A stretch of 64,000 nt of DNA. It comes from an uncultured Gemmatimonadaceae bacterium. Its GTDB lineage: Bacteria; Gemmatimonadota; Gemmatimonadetes; Gemmatimonadales; GWC2-71-9. The stretch covers positions 6,736-70,735 of the forward strand of contig CAYGBV010000017.1 in the NCBI GenBank assembly GCA_964348295.1. The letters run 5' to 3'. How positions within the stretch are numbered: the stretch's first letter is position 1; every line of letters starts with the position of its first letter. The position numbers and the translations under genes were made by a program. Of this stretch, positions 9,993 through 62,295 are shown in pieces. The notes beneath the pieces were generated by a model. That model ran no database searches. It was given only the letters and a program-made list of their open reading frames with translations, and was not told the DNA's origin.

Positions 9993-10108
9993 AGGCCGCG
10001 GATCGCTCCCGACCGCCGGCCGTCGCCCTGCTCTCGGCCGGCACCCTGACCTACGAGATCCTGCTCGTCCGGGTCTTCGCGATCGAGCAGTTCCACCACT
10101 TCGCCTAC

Positions 10109-16030: not shown

Positions 16031-18607
16031 TCAGAATGCGAAGCCGGAGCCGAAGTAGACGGCGACCCGCTCGTCGCCGGCAGCCACGGCGAGGTTGGCA
16101 GTCGCCATCCTGCCCACGAACGACAGCCACACCCCTCCCCCGGCCGCCCAGTGCCACCTGTTAGAGTCCTCACCCTCCAGAAACACGCGGCCCACGTCAC
16201 CGAGGGCGAACAGCCCGATCTGGGCCGGCAGGAGCAGGAACAGCCGTGACAGGCCAAACCGTACCTCAGCATTGCCCCACACCGAGGCATCCCCGCCGTA
16301 GCGGTTCTGCCGCCCCATGCGCACAGTGCGCTGATCGCCGATGTATGCGGCCTGCTGGAACGGGAACGTGCCGAACACCTTCTTGCCGCCGGCCCGCAGC
16401 GCCAAGGTGGGCTCGAGGGGCACCGACGGCGCGCTGAGGTACGTGCGCACGACTCCGTGGATCTCACCGAACACGTCCTCCACATCCCACACGGCCGGGT
16501 ACACGCTCCCGCCGAGGTCGATGAACCAACCCCGTGTCGGCCAGGTGGCCATGTCACGCGTGTCCAGCCGGATGGCGCCGATGAGTCCCAGCTCTCCGAA
16601 CTTGCCCGAGCCGTAGGGCAAGGAGTCGGCGATGATGCGGCCCGCCTCCTCCCGCGTGTTGAAGAAGGCGACGGTCGGCCCGATCCCGAGCTGTGCCCGG
16701 CGCCCGAGGGGCAGAACCAGCAGCTGATCGACCCTGAACTCACGCTGGCTCACCCGATAGTAGTCATCCTCCTCAGTGAGCTCCGTTTCGTTGCCCAACC
16801 CGAAGTAGCGCAACGTCTCGATTCCCGAGGCGAGCCCGTAGGTGAGGAAGTGGACCCGGGAGTTGAGCCAGTACGTGTCCAGTGAGAGGTCGAAGCGCGC
16901 GGTCTTAGCCGCGGTGGCGTAGCCACCCCGCAGCCGCGTGTACGACCCATACGGTATCGTCCGGAACGCGTAGTGGGTGACGTTGGCGCCGGCCCCGAGG
17001 AACAGCCCGATGTCGGGACCGAACTCGAACCAGCCCGTGCCCCGCCAGCGGCTGCCCCAATCCCGCGGTGGCAGCTCGGTGGGATACCGCTTGGGTGGGG
17101 GGGTGTACGGCCGGCGATCCACGATGAGCGCGGTCGGGCCACTCGCCCGATCGTCGCCGGTCGCATAGAAGTTGACCATGCCGCCGCTGGACGAGTCAAC
17201 GACCTCGTCGCTCCCACCACCGATGACTCGGATGGTGATGCCGTGACCGGGCCCCCGCACGATCACGTGATCCTCGCCCCCGTGGAGGAAGATCCGTATC
17301 TCCTTCGTTTCGCCTATGTGGAACCGCCGGTGCAAGTATGTGATCTCGGCGCCGGACGAGGGAAGCGTGCTCGTGAGCGTGACCTCGACGTCCCCATCGT
17401 CGTGCCGGTCCACGACGACCCGCTCGTCCTGGTCGGTAGCGTGGATGTCCACGGCTCCCGCGAGGACCCGGTAGAACCGGTCGGCCGCTTCGTGCAGCCT
17501 GTCGCGCCGCGCCTTCAGGGTCCGGCTGAGGCGCTCCCCGTCGAGGGCGTAGTACTCGGGGGGCAGCGCCCTGACGGAAGCGTCTATGACCGAGTCGTTG
17601 AGGCGGAACTTCAATTGCGCCGTGACCGTATCCCACACCGGCTTCTCGAGCCCCACGAGGAACCGCCGGTCCAGCTCGCGGCCGTTCCACGTGAGACCCA
17701 CCATGTTGGGGTAGCTCTCGCCGAACTCAACGAACTGCGGGAAGTACTGCCGCACTAACGTCAGGCCCACGCCGTCGAACCGGACCAGCGCCTGGTCCCG
17801 GTCCTCGGGTATCGGGATCCAGTGGGTCACCGCCGCGTCCTCGAATCGCGCCCATCCCCACTGGCCGCGATGCCGGTCCCAGTCACCGATCAGCAGGTCG
17901 AACATGCGCTCATAGAGGAACATCCGGGCATCGACGCGGTCGGCCGGGCTGCGCTCGACCCGTTCGAACATCTCATCGCTCCCGATGATCTCCACGGCAC
18001 CCGCGAAGCCGGGAGCACCGGGCTCGGTGATCGGCCGGCGAGCGATGTACCCCAGCGTGCCGGCGAACCGCTCGCGGTGCTCTGCGAGCCGCGGATCGTC
18101 GGGCAGCACGACCAGCCGCGGATCGGTGTGCACGATGCCGGCGCCCTCCATGAGGGGAGCCAGGACCGATGGCGCGGCGGGGTATGCCGAGTGGGTCTGG
18201 TCTTGCACGATGTCCTCGACGAACGTGCCCTCGAGACCCTCCGGGAGTATGTCCACGTCCTTGTCCACCGAGCGGAAGCCGTACTGGAGGCCGTCGGCGC
18301 CGCGGAACCGCAGCGACTTGGTCTGGAAGCCACCGCCCGCAGTGGTCGGCGTCAGGCCGCCGGCGAAGGTGCCGAGGTCGAGCAACTCCACCCTTATGGG
18401 AGCCGTCCAGAGCTTGCGGTAGTCGCTGCCGAAGTAGAACCGGTAGAGTCCACCCTTGGCGTAGTGGGCTCCGGCAACGATGGTAGTGTCTGGGCCGCGC
18501 TGCCCCCCCGCGGTCTCCTGTGCCAGCGCCGCCGACGGCGCGAGCCAGGTGGCAGCGAGCAGCACCAGCGTGGCCCGCAACAACCATGGGAAGCGTGAGG
18601 TAGTCAT
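16031..18607 (-). CDS. large outer-membrane protein with C-terminal Omp85/surface-antigen-like beta-barrel and unassigned N-terminal domain
   Basis: ATG 18607 overlaps the upstream stop (ATGA). Signal peptide ...LAPSAALAQE. N-terminal region carries IGDWDRHRGQW. The C-terminus is rich in alternating aromatic/Gly strands and ends ...VAVYFGSGFAF. Confidence 0.7.
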   Translation of the reverse strand: MTTSRFPWLLRATLVLLAATWLAPSAALAQETAGGQRGPDTTIVAGAHYAKGGLYRFYFGSDYRKLWTAPIRVELLDLGTFAGGLTPTTAGGGFQTKSLRFRGADGLQYGFRSVDKDVDILPEGLEGTFVEDIVQDQTHSAYPAAPSVLAPLMEGAGIVHTDPRLVVLPDDPRLAEHRERFAGTLGYIARRPITEPGAPGFAGAVEIIGSDEMFERVERSPADRVDARMFLYERMFDLLIGDWDRHRGQWGWARFEDAAVTHWIPIPEDRDQALVRFDGVGLTLVRQYFPQFVEFGESYPNMVGLTWNGRELDRRFLVGLEKPVWDTVTAQLKFRLNDSVIDASVRALPPEYYALDGERLSRTLKARRDRLHEAADRFYRVLAGAVDIHATDQDERVVVDRHDDGDVEVTLTSTLPSSGAEITYLHRRFHIGETKEIRIFLHGGEDHVIVRGPGHGITIRVIGGGSDEVVDSSSGGMVNFYATGDDRASGPTALIVDRRPYTPPPKRYPTELPPRDWGSRWRGTGWFEFGPDIGLFLGAGANVTHYAFRTIPYGSYTRLRGGYATAAKTARFDLSLDTYWLNSRVHFLTYGLASGIETLRYFGLGNETELTEEDDYYRVSQREFRVDQLLVLPLGRRAQLGIGPTVAFFNTREEAGRIIADSLPYGSGKFGELGLIGAIRLDTRDMATWPTRGWFIDLGGSVYPAVWDVEDVFGEIHGVVRTYLSAPSVPLEPTLALRAGGKKVFGTFPFQQAAYIGDQRTVRMGRQNRYGGDASVWGNAEVRFGLSRLFLLLPAQIGLFALGDVGRVFLEGEDSNRWHWAAGGGVWLSFVGRMATANLAVAAGDERVAVYFGSGFAF

Positions 18608-19782
18608 TTCATCGAACCTCCGCCGGCGTTCAACCACATCGTGAAGCTCTCGGTGGCCTGCGCATGCTCGTCCACAGTGAGCACGGCCAGCCGTAAGCGA
18701 CCGTCCTGCAGCACGTCCACCCGCATGAAGCCGCCCTCCGACGTCGCGTAGCGTGACTGCGCCAGGTAGAAGGCGTGGTCGCGGTGATCATAGTAGCCGC
18801 CTCCGCTGACGAGCATGTGCGTCACGACCTCCCCGTCGAGCACCTGCAGGTTGTGCTCGTGCCCACCGGCGTAGATCAGGGGCGGATGCTCGGCGAAGGC
18901 AGCGTGAAGCGAGTCGCGCATCTCCTGGTAGGCGCCGCTCGGAATGTCCTGTGACGAGATCCCCGACATCCGGGCGACGGGGTAAGCCGACCCGATGATC
19001 GGGAGCGGCAACCAGAGCCACGACGCGAGCTCGCGCAGCGGAAACAGGTGGTCTAGGATCGTGAAGTATCCCCCGTGCTTGCCACCAGAGGCGAGCGGAT
19101 GGTGAGCCATCACCGCTACGTACCGGCCGCCGGCCGCGCGCAACGCAGCGCGGATGGAGTCGGTCACCTCTTGCGGGCTGTCGGCGGGGCACGAAGAGGT
19201 GGGGTGCACCGGCTTGGCGTGCTTGTGGAGCCACCACTGGGTATCGAGTATCATGAGCCGGAGCCGCTCACCGAGGTCGACCACTACAGGACCAGGGCAT
19301 CCGCCGTGGGGCAGCAGCACCACGTCGGGCGAGCCCTGGGCCTCGATGTACTCCTGCTGCCGCCGCATGGTATCCCAGCCCGTGGCGCGGCCGTGCGCCC
19401 AGTCGTGATTCCCCGGCACGAAAACGGCGCGACCGCCGGCATCCACCACTGCGTCGATCTGTTCCTGGAGTCGCCGCTCCATCTCTCCACGGTCGGGGTC
19501 CGCGCTATCGGGCATCCCCTCGGGATAGATGTTGTCTCCCAGGAACACCACCGTGCTCCGCTCGGGGTTGAGTGACACGTCGTGCCGCAGCGCCGTCAGC
19601 ACCTGGTCACCGGGCTGCGGCAACCCGGCGTCCCCGATCAGATAGAGCGAAGTCTCCACGCTTCCGGGCCGCGGCTCGGGAGCCGGCTGCGTCTCGAGCA
19701 CCGGTGACGAGCTGCATGAGAGCAGCAGCGCTATGAGCACAGTCAGCGCGGTCGGGCGGCCGGCCATGCCGCGTGCCCTCAT
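18604..19782 (-). CDS. calcineurin-like metallophosphoesterase lipoprotein
   Basis: Lipobox LLLSCSS. GDAG, GDNIY, GNHD and GGHEHN motifs. Confidence 0.85.
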   Translation of the reverse strand: MRARGMAGRPTALTVLIALLLSCSSSPVLETQPAPEPRPGSVETSLYLIGDAGLPQPGDQVLTALRHDVSLNPERSTVVFLGDNIYPEGMPDSADPDRGEMERRLQEQIDAVVDAGGRAVFVPGNHDWAHGRATGWDTMRRQQEYIEAQGSPDVVLLPHGGCPGPVVVDLGERLRLMILDTQWWLHKHAKPVHPTSSCPADSPQEVTDSIRAALRAAGGRYVAVMAHHPLASGGKHGGYFTILDHLFPLRELASWLWLPLPIIGSAYPVARMSGISSQDIPSGAYQEMRDSLHAAFAEHPPLIYAGGHEHNLQVLDGEVVTHMLVSGGGYYDHRDHAFYLAQSRYATSEGGFMRVDVLQDGRLRLAVLTVDEHAQATESFTMWLNAGGGSMK

Positions 19783-21068
19783 CGGGAGCGAGCCAGCGCA
19801 CGCTCGAAGTCCCTCCCCGCCGGGTGCTGGAACAGCCGCAGGTCGAACTCGGGCGCGATGGCCAGGATGTGGTCGAAGATGTCGGACTGGATGCGCTCGT
19901 ACGTCACCCAGTCGGTGTCATTGGAGAACGCATAGACCTGGAGCGGGAGTCCGTCGGGCGTGGGATCGAGCTGCCGCACCATGAGGGTCATCCCCTTGTG
20001 AACCTTGGGGTGCTGCCGCAGGTAGTTCGCGATGTACACCCGAAACGTCCCGATGTTGGTGAGGCGCCTGGTATTGGCCACGAGCTCCGGGTCCGCCGGG
20101 CGTGCATCCTCATCGCCCGCCAGTTCTTCCTTCTTGCCCCGCATGTAATCCTGCAGCAAGGCGAACCGTGCGAATCGCTCGATATCTTCCTCCTCCAAGA
20201 ACCGGATCGTGTTCATGTCCACGTAGACCGCCCGCTTGATGCGACGGCCGCCGGACTCTGACATGCCCCGCCAGTTCTTGAAGGAACTCTCGATCAGCTT
20301 GTGCGTTGGGACCGCCGTGACGGTCTTGTCCCAGTTTTGCACCTTGATCGTGTGCAGCGAGATGTCCACCACATCGCCGTCGACGCCGTACTCGGGCAGC
20401 TCGACCCAGTCTCCCTCCCGCACAAGGCCGTAGCTACTCAGGGTGATGCTGGCGACGAACGAGAGGATGGTGTCGCGGAACACCAGGATGAGCACAGCGG
20501 TCATGGCTCCGAACCCGCTCAGGAACCAGAGCGGTGAGCGACCGAGCAGCGTCGCGATAATCACCACCGCACCCAGCACGTACATGATGATCTTGGCTAT
20601 CTGGACGTAGCCCTTGATGGGGCGGTGCCGGGCCGCCGGCGTGTTGGAGTATATCTCGCTCACCGCGGAGAGGAACGCGCCCGCGGCGAGGAGCCCGATG
20701 AGCTCCATCACGGCAACCGCCACGCGCGACACGAAGACCTTGAAGGCCGGGCTCAACGAGGGCACGAGCTGCACCCCGTAGTACACGACCAGCACACCCA
20801 CTATGTGGGAGAGTCGCTCGAACACGCGGTACTCGTGCAGCACGTCGTCCCAACGGAACTTCGTGCCCTTCACGAGCTTCTTGCTCAGCGGTGGAATCCC
20901 CCGCCGCGCCAGCTTGTCCACCGCGTACGCCGCGAGCAGGACGAGCAGGAAGCCCGTCACCTGCGCTGCCGGCGTCGGCTCCCGCAGCCATCCGAGGATC
21001 GACTGGGCGACGCCCGTGGTGTCCGCCGCCTCTTGCAGCAGCGCCACAATACCGATCATAGCCGTCAC
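19779..21068 (-). CDS. MscS-family mechanosensitive channel
   Basis: 429 aa. Several TM helices, then the conserved GDWVELPEYGVDGDVVDISLHTIKVQNWDKTVTAVPTHKL beta-domain. GTGA and ATGA overlaps at both ends. Confidence 0.85.
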   Translation of the reverse strand: MTAMIGIVALLQEAADTTGVAQSILGWLREPTPAAQVTGFLLVLLAAYAVDKLARRGIPPLSKKLVKGTKFRWDDVLHEYRVFERLSHIVGVLVVYYGVQLVPSLSPAFKVFVSRVAVAVMELIGLLAAGAFLSAVSEIYSNTPAARHRPIKGYVQIAKIIMYVLGAVVIIATLLGRSPLWFLSGFGAMTAVLILVFRDTILSFVASITLSSYGLVREGDWVELPEYGVDGDVVDISLHTIKVQNWDKTVTAVPTHKLIESSFKNWRGMSESGGRRIKRAVYVDMNTIRFLEEEDIERFARFALLQDYMRGKKEELAGDEDARPADPELVANTRRLTNIGTFRVYIANYLRQHPKVHKGMTLMVRQLDPTPDGLPLQVYAFSNDTDWVTYERIQSDIFDHILAIAPEFDLRLFQHPAGRDFERALARSR

Positions 21069-22282
21069 CGTGTCCCGTCGCGCTCCGAGCCCGCCGCCAC
21101 CGGCCGCGCGCCCTGTAACGGGATCCCGAAATGGACGTCGAAGTACACCTCCAGCACCTCCGCCAGGGCCTGCGCGAACGCCTCGCGGGCCGCTTGAGTA
21201 TCCCGTACTCCCTCGTAGTGCATCTCAAGCTGCACCCCGGAGACCGGCCCGCCCTCTGATGATCCGTGCCGTCTCGTGTCGTAGCCGCCGCTGTAGTACG
21301 GCGCCCCGCCGGGATCGGGCATTGCGGGACTGGGTACCGCCGGGAAGCCGCGCTGCGCCAGCAACGCTCCGAGGCTGGCGCCCCCCCGCAGCAGCGAGGC
21401 GAAGCTCGAATCGCACTCCAGCGCCAGGGTGCGGATGCTGCTCTTGTTCACGTACACCATGCTCTCCAACATGGCGTCGGGCAGCCCCAACTCGCTGCCT
21501 GTCACGAGATACCCCAACTCCAGCCGCGGGATCTCGTGAGCGTGCCCGTGGAGATCGACGTAGAAGCCGCGTCCGTGCTGCTGGGCCACGGCATCCGCCG
21601 CATCATCGATGAACCCATGGAACTCGCCCCATGCCCACTCGGCGTATGGGCTCCCCTGCGCCGCTTCCTCGATCTCGCGGTTGGGATCGAGCTTGACGCG
21701 GTGCAAGTGCGAGATGACTACATGGGGCCAGCCGCCGAACCGGTCGTGGAACGCCGTGCGCACCGCCCGCGCCATCTCCTGCGTCTGGCGATCCCGAGCC
21801 GTGGTTCCCCAGGTGCGATCAGGAATCTCCGTTGGCTCCTCGTACCCTCCGTGTGGGGCGGAGAAGATGACCGGCAGATCCCCGGCCAGATACTCCACGT
21901 ACTGCCTGCGTCCGAAGTAGACCTCGCCGGCGACGTAGTCCAGCTCCGGCGAGACGTATACCTCCAGCGTCGCCACACCGGATGCGGGCCCCGCGGTCGC
22001 GGTGATCGTCGTGATGCCCACGCCGACCGCCGTGGCGACCCCGGAAGTGGCGTCGATCGTTGCGACCGCCGGCTGACGGCTGTTCCAAGTCACGACGACG
22101 CCAGACATCACCGCGCTGTCGGCGCGCCGCACCACTGCACCGAATGAGACCGTGGTGCCGATGCTGGTGATCAACTCGATGGGCGGCGTGACCGACACGT
22201 AGGCGGGCGCATCGGGGCCCAGATCGCCGCAGCCGACCCAGGCCAGGCCAGCGAACACGGCGGCGGCCGCGCCACGGCCCAA
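21065..22282 (-). CDS. lipoprotein with Big_2-like Ig domain and N-formylglutamate amidohydrolase-like domain
   Basis: Probable TTG start at 22282, giving leader MGRGAAAAVFAGLAWVGC. The track's ATG 22387 would overlap the upstream gene by 89 nt. Ig-like ...VTWNSRQPAVATIDATSGVATAVGVGITTITA. FSAPHGG...DLHGH pattern resembles the FGase family. Confidence 0.65.
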   Translation of the reverse strand: MGRGAAAAVFAGLAWVGCGDLGPDAPAYVSVTPPIELITSIGTTVSFGAVVRRADSAVMSGVVVTWNSRQPAVATIDATSGVATAVGVGITTITATAGPASGVATLEVYVSPELDYVAGEVYFGRRQYVEYLAGDLPVIFSAPHGGYEEPTEIPDRTWGTTARDRQTQEMARAVRTAFHDRFGGWPHVVISHLHRVKLDPNREIEEAAQGSPYAEWAWGEFHGFIDDAADAVAQQHGRGFYVDLHGHAHEIPRLELGYLVTGSELGLPDAMLESMVYVNKSSIRTLALECDSSFASLLRGGASLGALLAQRGFPAVPSPAMPDPGGAPYYSGGYDTRRHGSSEGGPVSGVQLEMHYEGVRDTQAAREAFAQALAEVLEVYFDVHFGIPLQGARPVAAGSERDGTR

Positions 22283-22298
22283 CAGGGCGGCGCGCCGC

Positions 22299-22838
22299 TC
22301 AAGCAGCGCGCCGCTCCAGCCGCTCCAGCTCCCCCAGCGCTGCCATGAACTCGTGCGCCGATTTCTCCAGATAAGCACGGACCTCATCGATGTACCCGTC
22401 TGCCGACGCCGACCAGACGCGGTTGAGGTACCGCTCGCCCGCCGCGAAATGGTTCATGACGTCGGCGTACGCTTGCAACCCATGCACATGCGCGATGCTC
22501 TCCCGCGCCTCGACGAAGCTGTTGAGGTCGTCGGGGAGGAGCTCGTCGATGTGCTGTCGCGCCTCGTAGGGGTCGAGGGACTCCTTCTGCTGGTCGAGCA
22601 TGCTAACCTTCTGAACGATACTGCGCAGGCTCTCACCCAGGACCTTCATGCTGAGTGCGAGCTTGCCCTCGGCCCGCGCCTCCTGTCGAATGGCCAGCCG
22701 CACCGCCGCCACCCCGATCACGCCGACCGCCAGTGCGATGGCGTAGGTTCCCCATGCGACGTTCTGCTCGTCCACCACCGCGGCCAGGGCGCCCATCAGG
22801 AAGCCGAGGACAATCAACACGTAGCCCGCGTTTCTCAT
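22299..22838 (-). CDS. hypothetical two-TM membrane protein
   Basis: 179 aa. ggaaggaga SD. Two N-terminal TM helices, then a helical soluble region. No family recognised. Confidence 0.55.
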   Translation of the reverse strand: MRNAGYVLIVLGFLMGALAAVVDEQNVAWGTYAIALAVGVIGVAAVRLAIRQEARAEGKLALSMKVLGESLRSIVQKVSMLDQQKESLDPYEARQHIDELLPDDLNSFVEARESIAHVHGLQAYADVMNHFAAGERYLNRVWSASADGYIDEVRAYLEKSAHEFMAALGELERLERRAA

Positions 22839-28008: not shown

Positions 28009-30627
28009 TCACCTTCCGGGTTCACCGGAACCCCATGTAGAGTTCAGCCAATTCTTCTCTTGCGGGTCGATCTCTAAGGCCGTGCTGTATTCGACCAATG
28101 CCTGCTCTCTCCTTCCCAGGAGGAGAAGCATGTCTCCACTGATACTGTGATATCTTGCATCAAACCGCTGCTGCACCTTCTCTGCCACGGCAGCGACTTC
28201 CTCGTCGCTGTCTCCCACGTTGATCAAGAAAGGGAATACGCTCTCTCTCAACTCCCTGACGGCAAGCGTGTTTCGTATGCGGTACAGGCTCGACACGAAA
28301 TAGGCCATCGCCGGAGTGAACTCCAGGTAAGGATGATCATCTGTGTTTATTCGAGCATCTCCGACATACTCGGCTAGCGGCTGCTCACCCATCACGAACC
28401 AGCTCAGGACATCAATGGGCCCAGTTACGTTGAGCTGCTCCAATTCTGGGAGGACGGTACCCGTTGCCAACTTCCGACTCAACGCTCTGAAGTCAATCTG
28501 CAGCTCCTCCTGAGTCCCAACTAGAATGATGTGATACCTCATTGGTGTGAACCAGAGCGTCGTGTGCGGAAACACTGTCGTGAACGTCTTCGCTATCATC
28601 CTCACTTCCTCACTCGACAGCAAGTGGAACGGCAACCATTGGACCACTAATCCCTCACTGGACAGCCTCTGCTCGAGCAACTCATAGAACTCGAGAGTGT
28701 ACAGGCTGCCGTTTCCGGCCATCTTGGGTGAAGTAGCATCAATCGAGATCACATCATATTCCTTGTCGGTCACCAAGGCATAGTTCCTCCCATCTCCCAT
28801 CATCAAGTTGAATTTGGGCTCTTCCAGCACACCATGATTGGCTTCCGGAAACCACTTCGCAGCATCTATCACGGCCGGCACCAATTCGACACAGTCCACT
28901 TGTGCGACGTCGTACTGTGTCACGCCCCACGATGTCCCGCCCGTCCCAAACCCTATGATGTTCACGCGCGGGGATGGCACACTACTCAACAGAAGGGGCA
29001 GATGCGCCAACGGCTTCTGAATCTCGTGAGCCTCCAGAGCCGTTCCAGCCACCGGAAAGCCGTTCACACTCAGGACTTTCTCACCCCATCTGTCACGATA
29101 GACCTTGACGGTACCACCTATGCCTTCCTGATACGACAGCACCTCGGGGCTCTGGACTCCCTCGTAGTAGGATGTCAGGGTGATCGCACCACCGGTCACG
29201 TAGAAGGCCCCCATGCTGACGAACACCACCCCGGATCCGACAGCCAGCCCCATTCTGGTGCGGTGGGTCATCAGCGGCTCAGAGAGGATCAGAGCCACAC
29301 CGATCACGACGTTGATCCCGGCAATCACAATGATGCCGTGCTGCACGCCTATTAGAGGGATCAGTGCGAAACCAGCTAACACGGACCCAACGACCCCTCC
29401 GATCGTATTGATGGAATACACGTTGCCCAACGCGGTGCCCACCAGATTGAGGTTTCTCGTGTAGATCCTGCTCACCAGAGGAAACGTCATCCCCATCAGG
29501 ACGGTGGGCACGAGCATGACCGAGAGGCTCTTGAGGAACCTCATACCCATCCACTTCCAGGGGAGGGCTGAGTCAACGGCGACGCCCGCCATGCTTTGAA
29601 ATACGGGAGTCAGGCGACTCAGTATCGGAATTGCGAGGATGGCCGACACCCCAATCAGTACCTCTATCACTCCCAACCACGCCAACAACTTCTTTCTCGT
29701 GTCGATGAACCTCGCGATGACGAAGCTCCCGATGGCTATGCCCAACAGGAAGGCCGTAAGAATCGTCGTGAAGGCGTGAGTGGAATTGTCCAAGAAGAAC
29801 ACGAGAGCCCTGGTCCAGAACACCTCGAAGGCCAAGGCACACAAGCCGGACAGGCCGACAGCCCACAGCGCCAGGCGAGCTTCCTTGGGAGAGAAGACTT
29901 CCCCTCCGATCACCTCCGGCGCCTTCTCGCCTTCCTTCCTGCTGGCTTGGACGACCCCGCCAACCGCCTGCCACCGGTACAGGGCCAAGACGGTGCAGGC
30001 GATGAAGAGGTTCACCACCCCGGCGACATAAGCGGATTCCCTGACGCCCAGTAGGAGGATGAGAAAGAACCCCGCAGCAAGGGTGCCCCCAACCGCCCCG
30101 AACGTGTTCATGGCGTACAAGTGACCGACATTCCACGCCAGTCGCTCGCGTCTCTTGGCGAAGAACTTGACCAGGACAGGGAGCGTTCCACCCATCAGAG
30201 TGGCTGGAATGAGCAACACCAGGAACGAGAGGGCGAATCTGACCAGGCTGAGCTGGTAATAGCTCACGCCAAAACGCCGAGATACGCCAACATAGACCTC
30301 GGTCAGGACCGAGAAGAGCAAGGGCATCAGGAAGGCAAATACGGCGATCCCTGCTTCCAGCAGCGCATATACGAGAAGCGGGTTCCGGCCCCTATCGATG
30401 ACTCTGCCGAAGTAGAAACCACCCAGAGCCAACCCGGCAAAGAACGACGCCAGAATCGTGCTGGTGGCGAAGGCGGTCGCACCGAATACCAGGGTGAGCA
30501 TCCGCATCCAGACGACTTCATAGACCAATCCACAGGCGCCTGAGAGGAAGAACAACACCAGGATCGTCAGTCGCAGGCCGACCTCCTCCCGTGGCATGTC
30601 TTGTATGCGCTGTGGCGTCGCTGTCAT
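28009..30627 (-). CDS. fused MFS-like membrane domain / spermidine synthase-like protein with C-terminal TPR-like tail
   Basis: 872 aa. N-terminal FFLSGACGLVYEVVWMRMLTLVFGATAF helix, about 12 TM helices, spermidine-synthase-like core (NIIGFGTGGTS...VISIDATSP) and a C-terminal helical repeat. G+C is clearly lower than the flanks. Confidence 0.8.
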   Translation of the reverse strand: MTATPQRIQDMPREEVGLRLTILVLFFLSGACGLVYEVVWMRMLTLVFGATAFATSTILASFFAGLALGGFYFGRVIDRGRNPLLVYALLEAGIAVFAFLMPLLFSVLTEVYVGVSRRFGVSYYQLSLVRFALSFLVLLIPATLMGGTLPVLVKFFAKRRERLAWNVGHLYAMNTFGAVGGTLAAGFFLILLLGVRESAYVAGVVNLFIACTVLALYRWQAVGGVVQASRKEGEKAPEVIGGEVFSPKEARLALWAVGLSGLCALAFEVFWTRALVFFLDNSTHAFTTILTAFLLGIAIGSFVIARFIDTRKKLLAWLGVIEVLIGVSAILAIPILSRLTPVFQSMAGVAVDSALPWKWMGMRFLKSLSVMLVPTVLMGMTFPLVSRIYTRNLNLVGTALGNVYSINTIGGVVGSVLAGFALIPLIGVQHGIIVIAGINVVIGVALILSEPLMTHRTRMGLAVGSGVVFVSMGAFYVTGGAITLTSYYEGVQSPEVLSYQEGIGGTVKVYRDRWGEKVLSVNGFPVAGTALEAHEIQKPLAHLPLLLSSVPSPRVNIIGFGTGGTSWGVTQYDVAQVDCVELVPAVIDAAKWFPEANHGVLEEPKFNLMMGDGRNYALVTDKEYDVISIDATSPKMAGNGSLYTLEFYELLEQRLSSEGLVVQWLPFHLLSSEEVRMIAKTFTTVFPHTTLWFTPMRYHIILVGTQEELQIDFRALSRKLATGTVLPELEQLNVTGPIDVLSWFVMGEQPLAEYVGDARINTDDHPYLEFTPAMAYFVSSLYRIRNTLAVRELRESVFPFLINVGDSDEEVAAVAEKVQQRFDARYHSISGDMLLLLGRREQALVEYSTALEIDPQEKNWLNSTWGSGEPGR

Positions 30628-55076: not shown

Positions 55077-56093
55077 ATGACAGATGACACAGGCCTTCCG
55101 TCGGCCCGGCCGCGGAAGGTGCTCGAGAACATCGCGGCGGTGACCTGGGAGCACCCGGCCGACCGCGCCGCCCTGCAGACCGTCCGGGCCGTGCCCGGAT
55201 TCAACGAGGCGGTCAAGAAGATCGTCGGATTCTTCGGCGAGCGCGGCATCCGTCTCATCTTCCAAGCCAACGCCGTGCGGGTCGGGCCCAAGCAGTTCCC
55301 CGAGCTCCACTCGCTGATGACCGAGGTCACGGCCACGATGGATTGGACGGAGCAGCCCGAGCTCTACGTCTCCCAAACGCCCATGGTGAACGCCGGCGCC
55401 TTTGGCGTGGACCACCCGTTCATCGTGCTGAACTCGGGAGCGGTGAAGTTGCTGGACGAGGACGAGCTCCGCGTGCTGCTGGGACACGAGCTGGGCCACG
55501 TCATGAGCGGCCACGCCCTGTACCGCACTGTCACGATCCTCATCCTCACCCTCGGCTTCCAGAACCTGCCGTTCCTGGCCGGTATCGTGTTGCTGCCGAT
55601 CAAGCTTGCCCTGCTGGAGTGGTACCGGAAGAGCGAGCTCTCGGCCGACCGGGCCGGGCTGCTAGCCAGCCAGGATCCGGTGGCGTCGATGCAGGTCTTC
55701 CTCAAGCTCGCCGGCGGTGGCGACATGAGTGAGATGGACCTGCAGGCGTTCATGGAGCAGGCGCGCGAGTACGAGGAAATGGGCGGCCCCATCGACGCCA
55801 TCTACAAGATCCTCAACATGCTGGGACACACCCATCCATTCCATACGCTGCGGGCCGCGGAGCTGGAGCGCTGGATCGAGGACGGCTCCTACCAGCGCGT
55901 GCTGGATGGTGAGTACACCCACCGCGGCGAGGAGGAGGAGGAGCGCCCGTTGGCGAGCGACATCGGGGAGGCGGCAAAGCACTACGCCGAAGAGGCTAAG
56001 CACACGGTCTCACAGATGACCGACGCCGCCAAGCGTGCCGCCTCGGCGTTCACCGACGCGATCAAGGGCAAGGGCAAGGGCAAGAGCGAGTGA
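55077..56093 (+). CDS. M48-family zinc metallopeptidase
   Basis: HELGHVMSGH HExxH followed by hydrophobic helices and ELSADRAG. Lys/Gly tail KGKGKGKSE. Confidence 0.82.
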   Translation: MTDDTGLPSARPRKVLENIAAVTWEHPADRAALQTVRAVPGFNEAVKKIVGFFGERGIRLIFQANAVRVGPKQFPELHSLMTEVTATMDWTEQPELYVSQTPMVNAGAFGVDHPFIVLNSGAVKLLDEDELRVLLGHELGHVMSGHALYRTVTILILTLGFQNLPFLAGIVLLPIKLALLEWYRKSELSADRAGLLASQDPVASMQVFLKLAGGGDMSEMDLQAFMEQAREYEEMGGPIDAIYKILNMLGHTHPFHTLRAAELERWIEDGSYQRVLDGEYTHRGEEEEERPLASDIGEAAKHYAEEAKHTVSQMTDAAKRAASAFTDAIKGKGKGKSE

Positions 56094-57364
56094 AGGTCCT
56101 CGTCGTCGGGAGCGGCGGCCGGGAGCACGTGCTCTGCTGGGCCCTATCCCGATCGACCACCATCTACTGCGCCCCGGGGAATCCGGGAACCGCCCAGCTG
56201 GGCGCCAACCTGCCGATCAAGGTGAGCGACCACGCCGGCATCGTGGACGCCGTGCGCGAGCACGGCATCGACCTCACCGTGATCGGTCCGGAGGCCCCGC
56301 TCGCCGAGGGCCTGGTGGACGACCTCGCAGACGCCGGCTTCAAGGCATTCGGGCCGACGGCGGCTGCCGCGCAGATCGAGGCCTCCAAGGCATACGCCAA
56401 AGAGGTGATGTTCGCCGCCGGCGTCCCGGCCGCGGGGAGCGAGACCTTCACCGCCGAGCGGCCGGCGCTGGACTACATCGCCGCGCACGCGGAGCCGCTG
56501 GTGGTCAAGGCATCGGGACTGGCCGCCGGGAAGGGGGCGACCGTGTGCGAGACCCGCGCCGAGGCGGCGAGCGCGGCCAGGGAGATGTTCGGCGGGAAGT
56601 TCGGCGAGGCAGGGAGCACCGTCGTGGTGGAGCAGTTCCTCACCGGCGAGGAGCTCTCCATTCTCGCCTTGACCGACGGGGAGCAGGTCATGCTGCTCCC
56701 CGCCTCCCAGGACCACAAGCGCATCGGCGAGGGGGACACCGGGCCGAACACCGGCGGCATGGGGGCGTACACGCCGGTATCAATCGCCGACCAGGCACTG
56801 CTGGAGTGCGCCGACCGGGAGATCATCCGGCCGGTGCTCGCTGAGCTCGCCAAACGGGGGACACCGTACCGCGGCGTGCTCTACGCCGGGCTCATGGTGG
56901 ACGACGCGGGCCAGGCCAGGGTACTGGAGTTCAATTGCCGCTTCGGCGACCCCGAGGCGCAGGTGGTGCTGCCCGCTGCCGACCTCGACCTCACTGAGCA
57001 GCTATGGCCGATCGCCGCCGGCGAGGAGTGGCACCCGCCGACCACGTATTGCGCGGCCCGGCAGGCCGCCGTCACCACCGTCCTCGCGACCCCCGGATAC
57101 CCAGCGGCGCCCGTGAAGGGCCAGGAGATCTACCTCCCCAGCCCGCTGCCCGAAGACACGATCCTGTTTCACGCCGGCACCGCCGAGGAGGCCGGCACCC
57201 TGCGCGCGGCGGGGGGCCGAGTGCTCAACGCCACAGGGCTCGGGCCGGACGTGGTCGAGGCCGCGGAGCGGAGCCGCGCCCTGGCCGAGGCCATCACGTT
57301 CGAGGGACGCCAGTACCGCAGGGACATCGGGTGGCGCGAGGTAGCGCGTGCCGGAGCTTCCTGA
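56090..57364 (+). CDS. purD: phosphoribosylamine--glycine ligase
   Basis: GTG start overlaps the upstream stop (GTGA). MKVLVVGSGGREHVLCWAL, PGNPGTA, VVKASGLAAGKG. Confidence 0.96.
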   Translation: MKVLVVGSGGREHVLCWALSRSTTIYCAPGNPGTAQLGANLPIKVSDHAGIVDAVREHGIDLTVIGPEAPLAEGLVDDLADAGFKAFGPTAAAAQIEASKAYAKEVMFAAGVPAAGSETFTAERPALDYIAAHAEPLVVKASGLAAGKGATVCETRAEAASAAREMFGGKFGEAGSTVVVEQFLTGEELSILALTDGEQVMLLPASQDHKRIGEGDTGPNTGGMGAYTPVSIADQALLECADREIIRPVLAELAKRGTPYRGVLYAGLMVDDAGQARVLEFNCRFGDPEAQVVLPAADLDLTEQLWPIAAGEEWHPPTTYCAARQAAVTTVLATPGYPAAPVKGQEIYLPSPLPEDTILFHAGTAEEAGTLRAAGGRVLNATGLGPDVVEAAERSRALAEAITFEGRQYRRDIGWREVARAGAS

Positions 57365-58184
57365 GGTCGAGACGATCGTTCGCGACCTGCGCCCCAGGCT
57401 CACCGGTCGAAAGCTCAGCACTCCCCATCTCCACCGCACCGACGTGCTTCGCCGGGTCAGCCGCCAGCGGCTGATCCGGACCCTGGACCGCAACCGCATC
57501 GGCACCGTGGCGCGACGGGCCAAGCACGTCGTGATCGGCCTCGCCAGCGGCCACCGGCTGGTCATCCAGCCCCGCATGACCGGCAGCCTCCTGGTGTATG
57601 AGCGCCGCCTCACCGCGGAGCAGCGCCGCTACGCAGTCCTGGACGCCGGCATCGGGGGCGGGGCACGGTTCGTGTACCGCGACGTGCGCCGCCTCGGTAC
57701 CATCTGGCTCTTGGACGAACGCGGGTGGCAGACCTATACTGCGCGCATTGGTCCCGAGCCTCTGGATGACGACTTCGACGCCGACCGCTTCGCGACGCAG
57801 ATGACGGGCACGCACCAGGCCATCAAGAAGGCGCTGATGGACCAGCGCCGCCTGGCGGGGGTCGGCAACATCTACGCGAACGAGGCGCTGTTCCGGGCGG
57901 GCATCGACCCCTCGCGTCCCGCCGCCCGGCTCAGGCGCACCGAGCTCGAGTGGCTGCATCACCACGTGCGCGAGGTCTTGGAGGCAGCCATCGCGGCTCG
58001 GGGCACCACGGTGCGGGACTACCGTACCGGGACGGGACAGTCCGGCTCGTACCAGGATCTGTTACAGGTGTACGGGCGCGGCGGAGAGCCGTGCCGCCGC
58101 TGCGGGGCGCGGCTCGTGACCACGCACGAGATCGACGGGCGCGCAACGACGTTCTGCTGGCGCTGCCAGGGGAAGCCGCGATGA
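57348..58184 (+). CDS. mutM: formamidopyrimidine-DNA glycosylase
   Basis: MPELPEVETI N-terminus (GTG start). H2TH region. C-terminal zinc finger CRRCG...FCWRCQ. Confidence 0.95.
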   Translation: MPELPEVETIVRDLRPRLTGRKLSTPHLHRTDVLRRVSRQRLIRTLDRNRIGTVARRAKHVVIGLASGHRLVIQPRMTGSLLVYERRLTAEQRRYAVLDAGIGGGARFVYRDVRRLGTIWLLDERGWQTYTARIGPEPLDDDFDADRFATQMTGTHQAIKKALMDQRRLAGVGNIYANEALFRAGIDPSRPAARLRRTELEWLHHHVREVLEAAIAARGTTVRDYRTGTGQSGSYQDLLQVYGRGGEPCRRCGARLVTTHEIDGRATTFCWRCQGKPR

Positions 58185-59200
58185 AGATCGCCGTCGTGTT
58201 CGACACCCCCAACGACGGGTGGGAAGACGAAGATTACAAGCAGGAAGTAGCCGCGGAGGTGGACGAGCCCGAATACGAGGTGGCGGAGGCCTTGATGGCC
58301 TATGAACACGACGTACTGCTCGTGGGTGTGCACGACGACCTGCATCACATGTTCGAGCGGCTCGCGGCATTCAAGCCTGATTTGGTGTTCAACTGCTCGG
58401 AAGCATTCCACGAGCGGTCACGGCTGGACTACGTGTTCCCAGCGCTGCTGGAGGCGGAGGGGTATCACTACACCGGCTCGCCGCCCATCGCCCTCCTCAC
58501 CACCCGCAACAAGGCGATGAGCAAGAAGGTCCTGGCGTGGCACGGGGTGAAGGTGCCGCGCTTCGTGACGTACCGGCGCACCGAGGAGGTCGAGACCGCT
58601 CCCGACCTCGCCTTTCCGCTCATCGTGAAGCCGCTGCAGGAGGACGCCTCGGAGGGGATCGCCCAGGCTTCGGTGGTGCAGGATCTCGACGGACTCAAAG
58701 AACGCGTGCACTTCATCCACGGGAGCTTCCATCAGCCGGCGATCGCAGAGGAGTTCATCGAGGGACGGGAGCTGTACGTCAGCATGCTGGGGAACGGGGC
58801 GGACCTCCAGATCCTCCCCATCATCGAGATGGTGTTCGACAAGGACAAGACCAAGCCCGAGGAGCGTATCGCCACGAAGGCCGCCAAGTGGGACGAACCC
58901 TACCGGGAGCGCAAGGGCATCAAGAACGTGTTCGCGCGACCACTCTCGCAGGCCGCCGAGGAGCGCATCGAGGAAACCTGCCGCACCGCCTTCCGGGCTC
59001 TGTGGCTGCGGGACTACGCCCGCATGGACGTGCGGCTCACGCCGGACGACGAGGCGTGTGTGGTGGAGGTCAACGCCAACCCGTTCATCAGCTTCGGGCA
59101 CGACACCGCCAACGCCGCAGAAAAGGCCGGTCTGGACTACTACGCATTCATCGACCGCATCGTACAGGAGGCCCTCGCCCGGTATGAGTCGCACCCGTAG
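58181..59200 (+). CDS. ATP-grasp ligase, D-Ala-D-Ala-ligase-like
   Basis: ATG 58181 overlaps the mutM stop (ATGA). MKIAVVFD..., KAMSKKVLAWHGVKVPRF, FPLIVKPLQEDASEGI, EEFIEGRELYVSMLGN and RMDVRL...VVEVNANP ATP-grasp elements. Confidence 0.8.
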   Translation: MKIAVVFDTPNDGWEDEDYKQEVAAEVDEPEYEVAEALMAYEHDVLLVGVHDDLHHMFERLAAFKPDLVFNCSEAFHERSRLDYVFPALLEAEGYHYTGSPPIALLTTRNKAMSKKVLAWHGVKVPRFVTYRRTEEVETAPDLAFPLIVKPLQEDASEGIAQASVVQDLDGLKERVHFIHGSFHQPAIAEEFIEGRELYVSMLGNGADLQILPIIEMVFDKDKTKPEERIATKAAKWDEPYRERKGIKNVFARPLSQAAEERIEETCRTAFRALWLRDYARMDVRLTPDDEACVVEVNANPFISFGHDTANAAEKAGLDYYAFIDRIVQEALARYESHP

Positions 59201-60200
59201 GCGGAAGACCCGCCACCCGACGCCGCGCCCCGAGTTACGCTGCGCCTGCGGCCACGAGCTCAGGCGGTTCTGGCCTCACTGCCCCTGGTGCGGCCGCAAG
59301 CAGGTATGGCGCGACGACCCGCCGATCACCGGGGCGGAGTGCTACAAGTGCGGCTGGGTCGTGTCGGACCACAGCAATTTCTGCCCGTGGTGCGGCACCG
59401 ACATCTACGAGGAGGGCTACTCCGTCGAGGAGCCGCTCAAGGCTCCCAAGGGCTTCCGCTTCGACGGGCGCTGCGACGGGGGATGCGGTGGGGGCGTGCA
59501 GTATCCCATGCCCTATTGCCCGTGGTGCGGCGAGGAGCAGGAGTGGGACGACGAGGGCTTCGACGGCCCGTGCCCCCACTGCCACCGCGGTGTGAACGAC
59601 TGGATGGAGACGTGCCCCTGGTGCGGCGGCGACCCCACCGGCCAGGACCTGATTCCGCGCGCGCTGCGGCGTGTGAGGGAGCTCTTGCGGGCTTCACGCA
59701 TCAAAGACTGGAACTACCGCGTGGTGCTCCGTCCCGGCGTATCCGGCGTGGACCCCAAGTTCCCCAAGATCATCGAGATCGACTGGGATTACGTGCTGCA
59801 CGCCCGCGGGCGGGACGAGATCCCGTGGACCACCCTGGTCGGTCTCATCTGTCACGAGGCGGGTCACAGCTTCCTGTACCACCACTGGGGGTGGACCAGA
59901 AGGCCCACGTTCAGGCGCGTGTTCGGCGAGGTACACCGGGCGTACCGGGTGCGCGACGAGACCTGGGTGGACATGCAGCGCCGGCGCGTGAGCGCGACGA
60001 AGCCTCAGTACGTGAGCGCCTACGCATCCAACCACCCGCTGGAGGACTTCGCGGAGACGTTTCGCTTCTACGTGATGCGGCGCGGCCGGATGCGGGAGCT
60101 CCTCGCCGAGCTGGGCCAGAAGCGCAAGGCAGTGATCGTATACGAGAAGTTCCTCGCGCTGGACCACTACCTCCGCTACATCCGTTCGCTCCGGCGATGA
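59184..60200 (+). CDS. four-zinc-ribbon protein with C-terminal HExxH metallopeptidase-like domain
   Basis: ATG 59184, 17-nt overlap with the upstream gene. Four units of Cx(1-3)C-x10-CPWCG. Then ICHEAGHSF (HExxH) and NHPLEDFAETF. Confidence 0.75.
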   Translation: MSRTRRRKTRHPTPRPELRCACGHELRRFWPHCPWCGRKQVWRDDPPITGAECYKCGWVVSDHSNFCPWCGTDIYEEGYSVEEPLKAPKGFRFDGRCDGGCGGGVQYPMPYCPWCGEEQEWDDEGFDGPCPHCHRGVNDWMETCPWCGGDPTGQDLIPRALRRVRELLRASRIKDWNYRVVLRPGVSGVDPKFPKIIEIDWDYVLHARGRDEIPWTTLVGLICHEAGHSFLYHHWGWTRRPTFRRVFGEVHRAYRVRDETWVDMQRRRVSATKPQYVSAYASNHPLEDFAETFRFYVMRRGRMRELLAELGQKRKAVIVYEKFLALDHYLRYIRSLRR

Positions 60201-61312
60201 CGGCGAGCCAGGCCCTCGCGCTACCACTCGGCGACCTCGACATGCTCAGGCGCCGGGTGGCGGCGCTGGCCGAGAACCGTCCCGGGGTTTACCGCATGCT
60301 CGACCCGTCGGGGCGTGTGGTCTACGTGGGAAAGGCAAAGCGGCTGCGCGGCCGACTCCTCTCCTACTTCCGTGCGAGCTACCCAGCAGACAAGGCGGCC
60401 CGCATTCTGCACGCCGCGGCCGACATCCGCTGGGACTACGTGCCGTCTGAATTCGCCGCGTTCCTGGGAGAGCTCAAGCAGATCCGCCGCTACCGACCTG
60501 TCTTCAACGTGCGAATGAACCGCCACCGCAGGGTCGGGTTCATCAAGATCGCCGGGGGAACGGCACCGAAGCTCTACGTGGGCGGCACCGTGGGCGGCGA
60601 CGACGTGCGGCACTACGGACCGTTCGTGGGCGTGGGGCGCCTGAAGGAGAGCGTGAAGGTCCTGAACGACCTCCTGGGCTTGCGGGACTGCGCGCTCTCG
60701 ATGCCGATGGCCTACTCGGATCAGCAGGATCTGTTCGTCGGCTCGGAGCGGGCTGCGTGCATGCGTCACGAGCTCGGAACCTGCGTCGCTCCCTGCGCCG
60801 GATTTGTGACGGAGCCCGAGTACCGGCGCCGCGTGCGCATGGCCATCGACTTCATCGAGGCACGCGACGTGGCGCCCCTCGACCGGATCATCGCCCAGAT
60901 GACGGGGGCGAGCGAGGCTCAAGACTTCGAGCGCGCCGCCTGGTGCCGCGGCAAGTTCGACGCCCTCACCTGGTTGCTATCCGCCTGCACCCGAGCGCAG
61001 GCGGCGCTCGAGGCGCTGAGCTTCGTGTACGTCGATCCCGGCGTGTACGGCGACGACCGCGCCTACGTCGTCCGACGGGCCACCGTGCGCGCCGCGGCCC
61101 CGGCACCGCACACCCCCATCGAGATCGAGGCATTCCGCTCGCTGGTTGCCGAGCACGCCAACGGCGAGCCCCAGCCCGGCCCGATCCCGGCGGCGGCGAT
61201 CGACGAGACGCTGTTGCTGCTTTCCTGGTTCCGTCGCCACCCCGGCGCGCTGCGCCGCACGGTGGGACTGGAGGAGTGGCTGGAGCGGCACGCACCGGGG
61301 TTACACACATGA
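60197..61312 (+). CDS. UvrC N-terminal-half homologue (GIY-YIG nuclease + UVR motif; Cho-like)
   Basis: ATGA overlap. GVYRMLD...VVYVGKAKRLRGRLLSYF, SEFAAFLGELKQIRRYRPVFN, GPF...LRDC, C...HELGTCVAPCAG, and UVR-like EAQDFERAAWCRGKFDAL. No EndoV-like or HhH C-terminal half. Confidence 0.8.
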   Translation: MTASQALALPLGDLDMLRRRVAALAENRPGVYRMLDPSGRVVYVGKAKRLRGRLLSYFRASYPADKAARILHAAADIRWDYVPSEFAAFLGELKQIRRYRPVFNVRMNRHRRVGFIKIAGGTAPKLYVGGTVGGDDVRHYGPFVGVGRLKESVKVLNDLLGLRDCALSMPMAYSDQQDLFVGSERAACMRHELGTCVAPCAGFVTEPEYRRRVRMAIDFIEARDVAPLDRIIAQMTGASEAQDFERAAWCRGKFDALTWLLSACTRAQAALEALSFVYVDPGVYGDDRAYVVRRATVRAAAPAPHTPIEIEAFRSLVAEHANGEPQPGPIPAAAIDETLLLLSWFRRHPGALRRTVGLEEWLERHAPGLHT

Positions 61313-62295
61313 TCGGCCAGACAGCGCTCGCCGTCCTCGAGCTCGTTGCCGGCCTCGCGGTGCTGTTCTACGGCGGGAGTCTTCTGGTGCGCGGCGCCAC
61401 GGCCGTGGCTCTCCTGGCCCGGATCTCCACCGCCGTCGTGGCACTCACGGTGGTCGCGATGGGGACGAGCCTGCCGGAACTCGCGGTGAGCGTACGAGCG
61501 GCCTGGCGGGGCTCCACCGACATCGCCTACGCCAATGTCATCGGCTCGAGCATCTTCAACATCGGAGCCATCCTGGGCTTGGCCGCAGTAATGATGGCCA
61601 TTCCGGTGCGCAAGCACGCCCTTCAGGTCGAGTACTGGATCATGCTGGTGGCCACCGGCGCCGTCCTGTACTTCGCCTTCAACGGCAACGTGGGTCACCT
61701 TGAAGGCGTAGCACTGTGCGTCGGTCTCGGGCTGTTCGTGCTGTACAGCATCTACCACGCCCGGCGCGGGGTCAGCGGGAGCGAGGCGGCGGCGATGGAG
61801 AGTGAGGTGAAGCGCGCGGCGCACATGAAGGACGGTGCCGTGCGTGCCTGGGGACTCAACGTCGCGCTCATAGTGCTGGGCCTGATCGCGCTGGCCGTCG
61901 GAGCGGAGCTCTCCGTTCTGGGGGCGGTGACTGGTGCGCGCGTGCTGGGCGTGGAAGAGCGGGTCATCGGCCTTACCATCGTGGCCATGGGGACCAGCCT
62001 GCCGGAGTTCGCCACCTGCGTGGCCGCGGCGCGGCATAAGGAGCCGGACATCGCCCTGGGCAACGTGATCGGCTCCAACATCTTCAACCTGTTCGGTATC
62101 CTGGGAGTCACCGCCGCGATATTCCCCGTCCCGGTACGCGGCACGTTCCTTACGGCAGACAACTGGGTCCTGCTCACCTTCACTGTGCTGCTGTTCCCGA
62201 TCATGCTGTCGCGCCGGAGTGTCTCGCGCCGCGAGGGGCTGTTCCTACTGGTGGGCTTTTCCGTCTACATCGTGTGGGTGGTGGTGGCGCGGTAG
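61309..62295 (+). CDS. CaCA-family cation/Ca2+ antiporter (YrbG-like)
   Basis: ATGA overlap. Two alpha-repeats, GTSLPELAVS...NVIGSSIFNI and GTSLPEFATC...NVIGSNIFNL. Confidence 0.9.
   Translation: MIGQTALAVLELVAGLAVLFYGGSLLVRGATAVALLARISTAVVALTVVAMGTSLPELAVSVRAAWRGSTDIAYANVIGSSIFNIGAILGLAAVMMAIPVRKHALQVEYWIMLVATGAVLYFAFNGNVGHLEGVALCVGLGLFVLYSIYHARRGVSGSEAAAMESEVKRAAHMKDGAVRAWGLNVALIVLGLIALAVGAELSVLGAVTGARVLGVEERVIGLTIVAMGTSLPEFATCVAAARHKEPDIALGNVIGSNIFNLFGILGVTAAIFPVPVRGTFLTADNWVLLTFTVLLFPIMLSRRSVSRREGLFLLVGFSVYIVWVVVAR

Follow-up and report, generated by a model that had tools for sequence, protein, structure and literature searches.

Organization of the Locus

The present study concerns two adjacent genes, one for a divergent ATP-grasp ligase of the Ddl fold and one for a metallopeptidase in which four zinc ribbons precede a Peptidase_Mx zincin domain, in a 64,000-nucleotide stretch of DNA (hereafter, the window) from an uncultured Gemmatimonadaceae bacterium (contig CAYGBV010000017.1, positions 6,736 to 70,735 of the forward strand). 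The two genes belong to a chain of seven genes of mixed function (Table 1). Five of these, from mutM to the antiporter gene, had been recognized in an initial annotation made from the sequence alone, and its coordinates and overlaps all proved exact, the junctions being ATGA at 58181, a 17-nt overlap at 59184-59200, and ATGA at 60197 and again at 61309. Each of the five open reading frames (ORFs) reads through in frame to a single terminal stop, and their five identifications are correct according to profile and structure-sequence matches. The proposal of a chain with mutM in front holds for the overlaps but not for the starting point, because purD and the gene for an M48-family peptidase are added 5' of mutM.

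Co-transcription of the chain, which the initial annotation had also proposed, is very likely, and no plus-strand terminator-like site was found inside it. Translational coupling along the chain, including the ligase/peptidase junction, is plausible from the arrangement of the start and stop codons, and an AGGAGG motif lies approximately 12 nt 5' of the ATG of the peptidase gene. GC content at third codon positions (GC3) is even along the chain (0.87-0.91), and horizontal transfer of the pair, considered on the basis of composition, has left no sign.

Overlap in this genome is no evidence for shared function. The host genome is compact, with a GC content of 68%, and a second run with three consecutive 4-nt overlaps lies on the minus strand of the window at approximately 16031-22453; since this run joins functionally unrelated genes, the overlaps are partly a matter of genome style. 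Its products are a 918-aa protein without a Pfam match, a metallophosphatase, an MscS-type channel, and an FGase-like protein. The simple GC3-based gene caller that was used here missed several real genes, and it served solely to show 4-nt overlaps elsewhere in the window. The locus thus cautions that, in compact, high-GC genomes, unrelated genes are strung together by the overlap of their stop and start codons.

Table 1. Genes of the chain and motifs of the peptidase, with positions in the window.
Feature	Position	Strand	Remarks
M48-family zinc peptidase gene	55077..56093	+	First chain member; Pfam Peptidase_M48, 85.5 bits; GTGA overlap with purD
purD (phosphoribosylglycinamide synthetase)	56090..57364	+	GARS_N/A/C, 239, 122, and 87 bits; 17-nt overlap with mutM
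mutM/fpg (formamidopyrimidine-DNA glycosylase)	57348..58184	+	GTG start; NCBIfam equivalog NF002211, 260.5 bits (cut-off 212)
Divergent Ddl-fold ATP-grasp carboxylate-amine ligase	58181..59200	+	Partner 1 of the pair; Dala_Dala_lig_C, 77.7 bits
Four-zinc-ribbon Peptidase_Mx zincin	59184..60200	+	Partner 2 of the pair; Peptidase_Mx, 50.2 bits (cut-off 27); DZR, 36.3 bits
Four-zinc-ribbon array (CxC/CxxC … CPWC)	59241..59624	+	16 Cys, invariant within the family
HEAGH zinc-binding/catalytic motif of the zincin	59853..59867	+	H224, E225, and H228 invariant
HPLEDFAE motif	60033..60056	+	Probable third zinc ligand (gluzincin-type Glu); H284, P285, E287, D288, and E291 invariant
Cho-like nuclease (UvrC N-half homologue)	60197..61312	+	GIY-YIG and C4 regions and a putative UvrB-binding-like region; lacks EndoV/HhH and ExoIII
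YrbG-type Ca2+/Na+ (CaCA) antiporter	61309..62295	+	Final chain gene; TIGR00367, 212.2 bits (cut-off 179.65); Na_Ca_ex, two repeats

Conservation of the Ligase-Peptidase Pair

Overall, the region is probably best understood as an autonomous two-gene cassette of a ligase and a zincin that, in one lineage, has come to lie inside an old synteny block of housekeeping and repair genes. This reading draws on a scan in which each GTDB species was represented by one genome and 414 genomes proved to encode a peptidase relative; the 80 best of these 414 loci, all from Gemmatimonadota, were surveyed with 10-kb flanks by searching them with ten window proteins. The ligase gene lies directly 5' of the peptidase gene in 71 of the 80 judgeable species-level loci, as would be expected from the suggestion in the initial annotation that the two form a conserved pair, and overlaps of 1-17 nt between them are retained in the gene-called loci. 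When two loci were anchored on the ligase instead, the peptidase gene again followed immediately downstream.

Sixty-eight loci could be judged fully for the arrangement of mutM and cho. The pair stands alone, with neither gene within 10 kb, in 36 of these, and the order mutM-ligase-peptidase-cho is found in 25; five loci have mutM-peptidase-cho with the ligase absent, one lacks cho, and one has a solo peptidase. Every mutM-bearing locus holds a whole block of 8-10 genes, metC-M48-purD-mutM…cho-caca, which is usually followed by metallophosphatase and ubiX genes on the opposite strand. The block also occurs by itself, as four of five genomes that were anchored on cho carry metC-M48-purD-mutM-cho-caca with mutM abutting cho and no pair; two of these pair-less block genomes are near-complete chromosomes (5.5 and 3.2 Mb). 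The mutM-cho block and the pair can therefore each occur without the other, and it is the pair that stays together as a unit.

The pair is found in at least four or five unrelated genomic contexts, and because the flanking genes often sit on the opposite strand, it is a stand-alone operon in many of them. In a neighbor-joining tree of the peptidase, the loci with the pair alone form one clade and the block-embedded loci form a grade. The pair is essentially confined to Gemmatimonadota and is thus lineage-specific. It is also present in metagenome-assembled genomes (MAGs) labelled as Myxococcota, namely L002 (GCA_016717005.1, labelled Myxococcales) and P0106 (labelled Kofleriaceae), the peptidases of which branch inside the Gemmatimonadota clade; these cases could reflect either horizontal transfer or an error of binning or taxonomy.

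Some stand-alone loci have conserved sequence 5' of the ligase gene. In one such context, the element TAGGATAATGCAG, followed by CCACCAGGGGT and GCCACTATTCGG, is conserved approximately 100 nt 5' of the ligase start in a divergent intergenic region (L042, L047, L053, L059, L060, L061, L062, L069, L071, and L078); it is absent from the window. This element, with its two companions, may be a candidate for the cassette's own promoter. Heptamer tandem repeats lie directly 5' of the ligase start at two other stand-alone loci, with five copies of CTGCACC in L032 (approximately 8860-8930) and six copies of TTCCCGA in L033 (approximately 8880-8945).

The ATP-Grasp Ligase

The ligase exhibits considerable similarities to D-Ala-D-Ala ligases, but there are also significant differences. 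Like Ddl and VanA enzymes such as E. coli DdlB (PDB 2dln), it has the three-domain ATP-grasp fold together with the nucleotide, magnesium, and acyl-phosphate residues; its AlphaFold2 (AF2) model is of good quality, with a predicted local distance difference test (pLDDT) score of 90.8, and its closest structural neighbors are without exception Ddl or VanA enzymes, at a template modelling (TM) score of approximately 0.75 and 20-26% identity. For comparison of individual residues, 50 members of the ligase family were aligned with E. coli DdlB, the sequence of which was checked against PDB 2dln. The residues K111, K150, E190, E197, K236, R281, D283, E296, and N298 are present in the ligase, and the corresponding DdlB positions (K97, K144, E180, E187, K215, R255, D257, E270, and N272) are 98-100% conserved across the family. 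From these residues, the ligase is predicted to be a catalytically intact ATP-grasp enzyme.

The D-Ala-binding site, by contrast with that of Ddl, has been rebuilt. The N-terminal motifs GGxSxE and HGxxGEDG are missing, as is the E15 motif (DdlB numbering) throughout the family; the S150/Y216 triad and S281/L282 are replaced, and an insertion of approximately 20 residues is found around the omega-loop. The replacements are S150 to A, Y216 to W, G276 to F, S281 to H, and L282 to D, and those at S150, Y216, S281, and L282 are 92-100% conserved. In addition, the scores fall far short of the Ddl cut-offs (NF002378, 112.5 bits versus 243; TIGR01205, 97.4 bits versus 245.65), and a tblastn search with E. 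coli DdlB at E ≤ 1e-3 did not detect the ligase gene. No canonical ddl was found within the window. Because the D-Ala pocket is rebuilt, the substrate is unlikely to be D-Ala-D-Ala, and the enzyme is predicted to be something other than a D-Ala-D-Ala ligase. The initial annotation had likewise considered cell-wall D-Ala-D-Ala synthesis the less likely role, and a bona fide Ddl retaining all D-Ala-binding residues is not what is found here. It should be noted that public annotations routinely label this Ddl-derived ligase with its rebuilt pocket as D-alanine-D-alanine ligase.

The closest non-orthologous relatives of the ligase are ATP-grasp genes on plasmids, which at 31-34% identity are much nearer to it than are true Ddl enzymes. 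These relatives share the motif FNxAEG but not the Gemmatimonadota-specific features FDTP, W14, EY, KW, and SFGH. The relative in Thioflavicoccus is clustered with genes for a diaminobutyrate transaminase, SbnA, an ornithine cyclodeaminase, and KamA, and the relative in NGR234 adjoins CapA. A mycosporine ligase of the MysD type was considered and rejected, as MysA-, MysB-, and MysC-type genes are absent from every context examined.

The Zinc-Ribbon Peptidase

The second partner carries sixteen ribbon cysteines, at positions 20, 22, 33, 36, 53, 56, 67, 70, 97, 101, 112, 115, 130, 133, 144, and 147, and each of its four ribbons ends in CPWC. In an alignment of 22 sequences of the family, all sixteen are invariant, HExGH and HPxEDFAE are invariant as well, and the mean column identity is 74%. 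Among distant Peptidase_Mx relatives, the HExxH columns are invariant or nearly so and the residues of HPLEDFAE are at least 90% conserved. The His residues just after HExxH are not conserved, position 233 being H or Y and position 234 H or N across the family, which makes a distant Glu, and not a nearby His, the probable third ligand of the zinc. On reading the sequence, without use of a predictor, there is no signal-peptide-like or hydrophobic segment, which suggests a cytoplasmic enzyme.

Canonical Peptidase_Mx proteins (PF10005 Zn_ribbon_DZR_6 plus PF15887, approximately 350 aa, annotated in Proteobacteria as 'putative zinc-binding metallopeptidase') follow the same general plan, with an N-terminal ribbon and then a zincin with HExxH … YA.HP.EDFAE. 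However, they have one PF10005 domain and match the full 236-position PF15887 profile, whereas the window peptidase has four CPWC ribbons and aligns solely with positions 81-165, the core of that profile. Relatives of the zincin domain, when it is used by itself as the query, are few: only 132 of 1.84 billion representative proteins match it at E ≤ 1e-3. The distant matches are ordinary Peptidase_Mx proteins, nine of 62 having an N-terminal PF10005 ribbon and one being fused to an AstE/AspA-type domain.

Database searches added little to this picture. A PDB sequence search with the peptidase family returned marginal matches only (9urd and 4l7a, both uncharacterized). A fold search of the PDB with a poor AF2 model of the peptidase gave a best E of 0.68, with faint zincin matches (anthrax lethal factor, BepA, and BlaR1), and was left unused. 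The possibility that the ribbon protein is a LysW-like carrier, that is, a zinc-ribbon protein serving as a substrate of the ATP-grasp enzyme, was rejected, because the fold match has a meaningless E of 8 and there is no acidic C-terminal tail. A literature search found no paper on Peptidase_Mx/PF15887 and no biochemically characterized member, and the window peptidase offers a clean case for assigning a first function to this family.

Possible Functions of the Pair

The individual families of the ligase and the peptidase are known and annotated, but their pairing and the four-ribbon architecture appear to be undescribed, and a literature search did not find a description of a Ddl-clade ATP-grasp enzyme paired with a four-ribbon Peptidase_Mx protein. 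The pair comprises well-delimited and highly conserved enzymes in hundreds of species of Gemmatimonadota, a soil-abundant phylum for which biochemistry is scarce. Comparative genomics by Iyer, Abhiman, Burroughs and Aravind in Mol Biosyst in 2009 is said to have predicted modules of an ATP-grasp amidoligase with a dedicated peptidase. Like such modules, the present pair brings together two enzymes of unrelated folds, a ligase and a peptidase, that neighbor each other across contexts; unlike them, it has no additional conserved partner, for example a carrier, a precursor peptide, or a GNAT protein. By the logic of amidoligase modules, adjacency across contexts would suggest a shared substrate, with one amide bond formed and a different one cleaved.

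We infer the chemistry of the two enzymes, their substrate, and the coupling between them as follows. The ligase would activate a carboxylate as an acyl-phosphate with ATP and magnesium and join it to an amine, and the peptidase would hydrolyze an amide linkage in that product, or in the same target, with turnover, trimming, or maturation as the result. The ribbon array may dock the peptidase on a conserved partner, probably a macromolecule; a macromolecular partner suits the data better because the peptidase, its ribbons included, is conserved over its full length at the level of housekeeping proteins.

Several observations weigh against this reading of the cassette as an autonomous unit with coupled activities. 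In the peptidase tree, at least three or four independent losses of the ligase can be counted, with the peptidase remaining intact. The ligase gene is cleanly missing between mutM and the peptidase in L019, L020, L024, L029, L038, L049, L051, and L063 (at approximately 9900-10050), where a gap of approximately 70-150 nt separates the two on at least three or four branches. One MAG, MFD09964.bin.2.64, has two copies of the peptidase, one paired (L064) and one solo in another context (L080, 10040-10996). Because the ligase has been lost repeatedly with the peptidase kept, and because of this solo copy, the peptidase cannot depend strictly on an adjacent ligase, which shows that it also has ligase-independent work. 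Furthermore, canonical zinc-ribbon plus Peptidase_Mx genes on three proteobacterial plasmids stand alone, with no ATP-grasp neighbor; since they do so, the ligase/peptidase pairing is a lineage-specific innovation rather than a general trait of Mx proteins. The peptidase model that AF2 built from the 22-sequence alignment is poor (pLDDT 55.7) and permits no structural inference. The sequence and neighborhood analysis identified no substrate, product, or partner of the pair. Finally, the cassette is tightly coupled between mutM and cho in approximately 40% of the sampled species, and co-expression with repair genes is therefore likely in these species.

Among the alternatives, a role in small-molecule peptide metabolism is possible, if on the unlikely side: an enzyme of the L-amino-acid ligase type would make a dipeptide or pseudopeptide that the peptidase recycles or activates. 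Characterized enzymes of the Ddl clade mostly act on small molecules, and the nearest non-orthologous relatives of the ligase, as described above, sit in clusters for amino-acid derivatives (Thioflavicoccus) or beside CapA (NGR234). However, these plasmid relatives lack the Gemmatimonadota-specific motifs, no genes for precursor synthesis or export are conserved beside the pair, and the whole-length conservation of the peptidase is a better fit to a macromolecular partner.

A system of reversible protein or peptide tagging specific to Gemmatimonadota, with a logic like that of RimK or of TTL plus a carboxypeptidase, is rather unlikely as a specific proposal. In this scheme, one or more amino acids would be attached by the ligase to a carboxylate on a conserved protein of the cell, and the zincin, docked on this target through its ribbon array, would remove or trim the tag. 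A variant of this idea with a DNA-associated target would explain the site of the cassette between mutM and cho in one lineage, and is much less likely.

Remodelling of cell-wall precursors according to VanA/VanX logic, in which the ligase makes an alternative D-Ala-D-X or a similar dipeptide and the peptidase destroys the competing dipeptide, is improbable. The closest solved sequences and folds to the ligase are all Ddl, VanA, or VanG, and one of the stand-alone contexts has a putative PBP4-like D-Ala-D-Ala carboxypeptidase gene, recognized by eye, at a distance of a few genes and on the opposite strand. On the other hand, the D-Ala1 and D-Ala2 contacts are replaced by family-specific residues, the ligase scores less than half of the Ddl cut-offs, its gene escapes the DdlB search mentioned above, the peptidase is a ribbon-bearing HExxH gluzincin and not of the M15 VanX type, and other van or mur genes are not linked to the pair in the contexts examined.

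We also give little credence to the view that the two genes are mere neighbors, the peptidase doing a generic Peptidase_Mx job and the ligase something unrelated. The repeated loss of the ligase, the one solo copy, and the stand-alone canonical Mx proteins would all fit such a view, but the two genes have moved together into several unrelated contexts, and at only 60-70% protein identity the 71 of 80 loci still have them side by side on one strand with overlapping ends.

Relationship to DNA Repair

The position of the pair between two genes for DNA-damage enzymes had led the initial annotation to suggest that the pair acts alongside MutM and the Cho-like nuclease in repair-linked protein modification or in the processing of DNA-protein crosslinks, with a logic like that of SprT and Spartan. 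This would, if true, be a new bacterial pathway for DNA-protein crosslinks; the evidence counts against it, and we regard it as very unlikely. The order mutM-ligase-peptidase-cho with overlapping junctions does recur in 25 of the 68 loci, the peptidase is kept between mutM and cho in 5-8 species that lack the ligase, and zinc ribbons could bind nucleic acid. However, the triad of ATP-grasp enzyme, peptidase, and GIY-YIG nuclease is seen beside mutM solely inside one vertically inherited synteny block. Because mutM, the pair, and cho in this order always come with the entire metC-M48-purD…caca block, their order reflects descent and no independent recurrence, and the triad is conserved by descent only. 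The block without the pair and the pair without mutM or cho, described above, likewise speak against a joint function, and the cassette has no demonstrable functional tie to DNA repair.

The comparison with crosslink proteases does not hold up either. The peptidase shares with SprT, Spartan, and Wss1 the combination of a small HExxH zincin with zinc-binding modules, but it is a Peptidase_Mx protein without an SprT-like or WLM Pfam match at E ≤ 0.01, it lacks the conserved third His close to HExxH and probably has a distant Glu as the third ligand, and its genes show no conserved link to repair genes. LexA boxes of the Cheo, E. coli, alpha, and cyanobacterial types were found upstream of none of 41 stand-alone pair operons, and no SOS/LexA boxes were found inside the window; both negatives are weak, as the motifs used are those of other groups. 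The defence models of PADLOC gave no match for the ligase, the peptidase, or cho.

Flanking Genes and Other Features of the Window

MutM is a canonical Fpg, with the N-terminus PELPEVE and a C-terminal CxxC…CxxC zinc finger (Cys 249, 252, 270, and 273); the start of its gene is secure, because the product of the GTG start begins with PELPEVE.

The nuclease encoded downstream of the pair, a protein of 371 aa that is 100% identical to an NCBI record, aligns with the UvrC GIY-YIG structures 1yd6 and 1ycz (E = 6e-12); the catalytic residues Y, Y, R, E, and N are in register, and the GVY, YVGKA, R, E, and N positions are kept. Its C4 region has Cys 165, 188, 196, and 200. The UVR domain PF02151 scores 17.2 bits, below the cut-off of 21.5, and is annotated in several homologues, as is PF27096 (UvrC_M). 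The TIGR00194 UvrC model is covered only at positions 8-227 of 574, and the equivalog for E. coli-type Cho, NF007833, gives 48.7 bits (cut-off 367). Over nearly the entire protein, it is best matched by the C-terminal halves of actinobacterial fusions of a DEDD exonuclease with a Cho-like protein (C-half of PRK07883). The Cho-like type has been described as GIY-YIG-C4-UvrBb without EndoV/HhH or ExoIII (Dunin-Horkawicz et al., 2006; PMC1564403). The window protein shares with this subfamily the GIY-YIG domain and the C4 region, together with the lack of EndoV/HhH and ExoIII; it has a candidate region of the UvrB-binding type, and differs in an additional C-terminal tail of approximately 110 residues. 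By its domain composition it is assigned to the Cho-like subfamily of UvrC/Cho, and it is not an orthologue of E. coli Cho.

The genes mutM and cho are direct neighbors in the pair-less loci L089, L090, L093, and L094, and one base is common to both genes in L093. The base-excision glycosylase and the UvrC-half nuclease may thus form a two-gene repair unit of their own inside the purD…caca block. The 3' end of this block is variable: L096 (6192-6938) has a shortened cho of 248 aa and no caca, and L097 likewise lacks caca.

Elsewhere in the window, an 872-aa ORF at 28009-30627 on the minus strand combines a major facilitator superfamily (MFS) transporter with a spermidine/spermine synthase domain, which is an unusual fusion.

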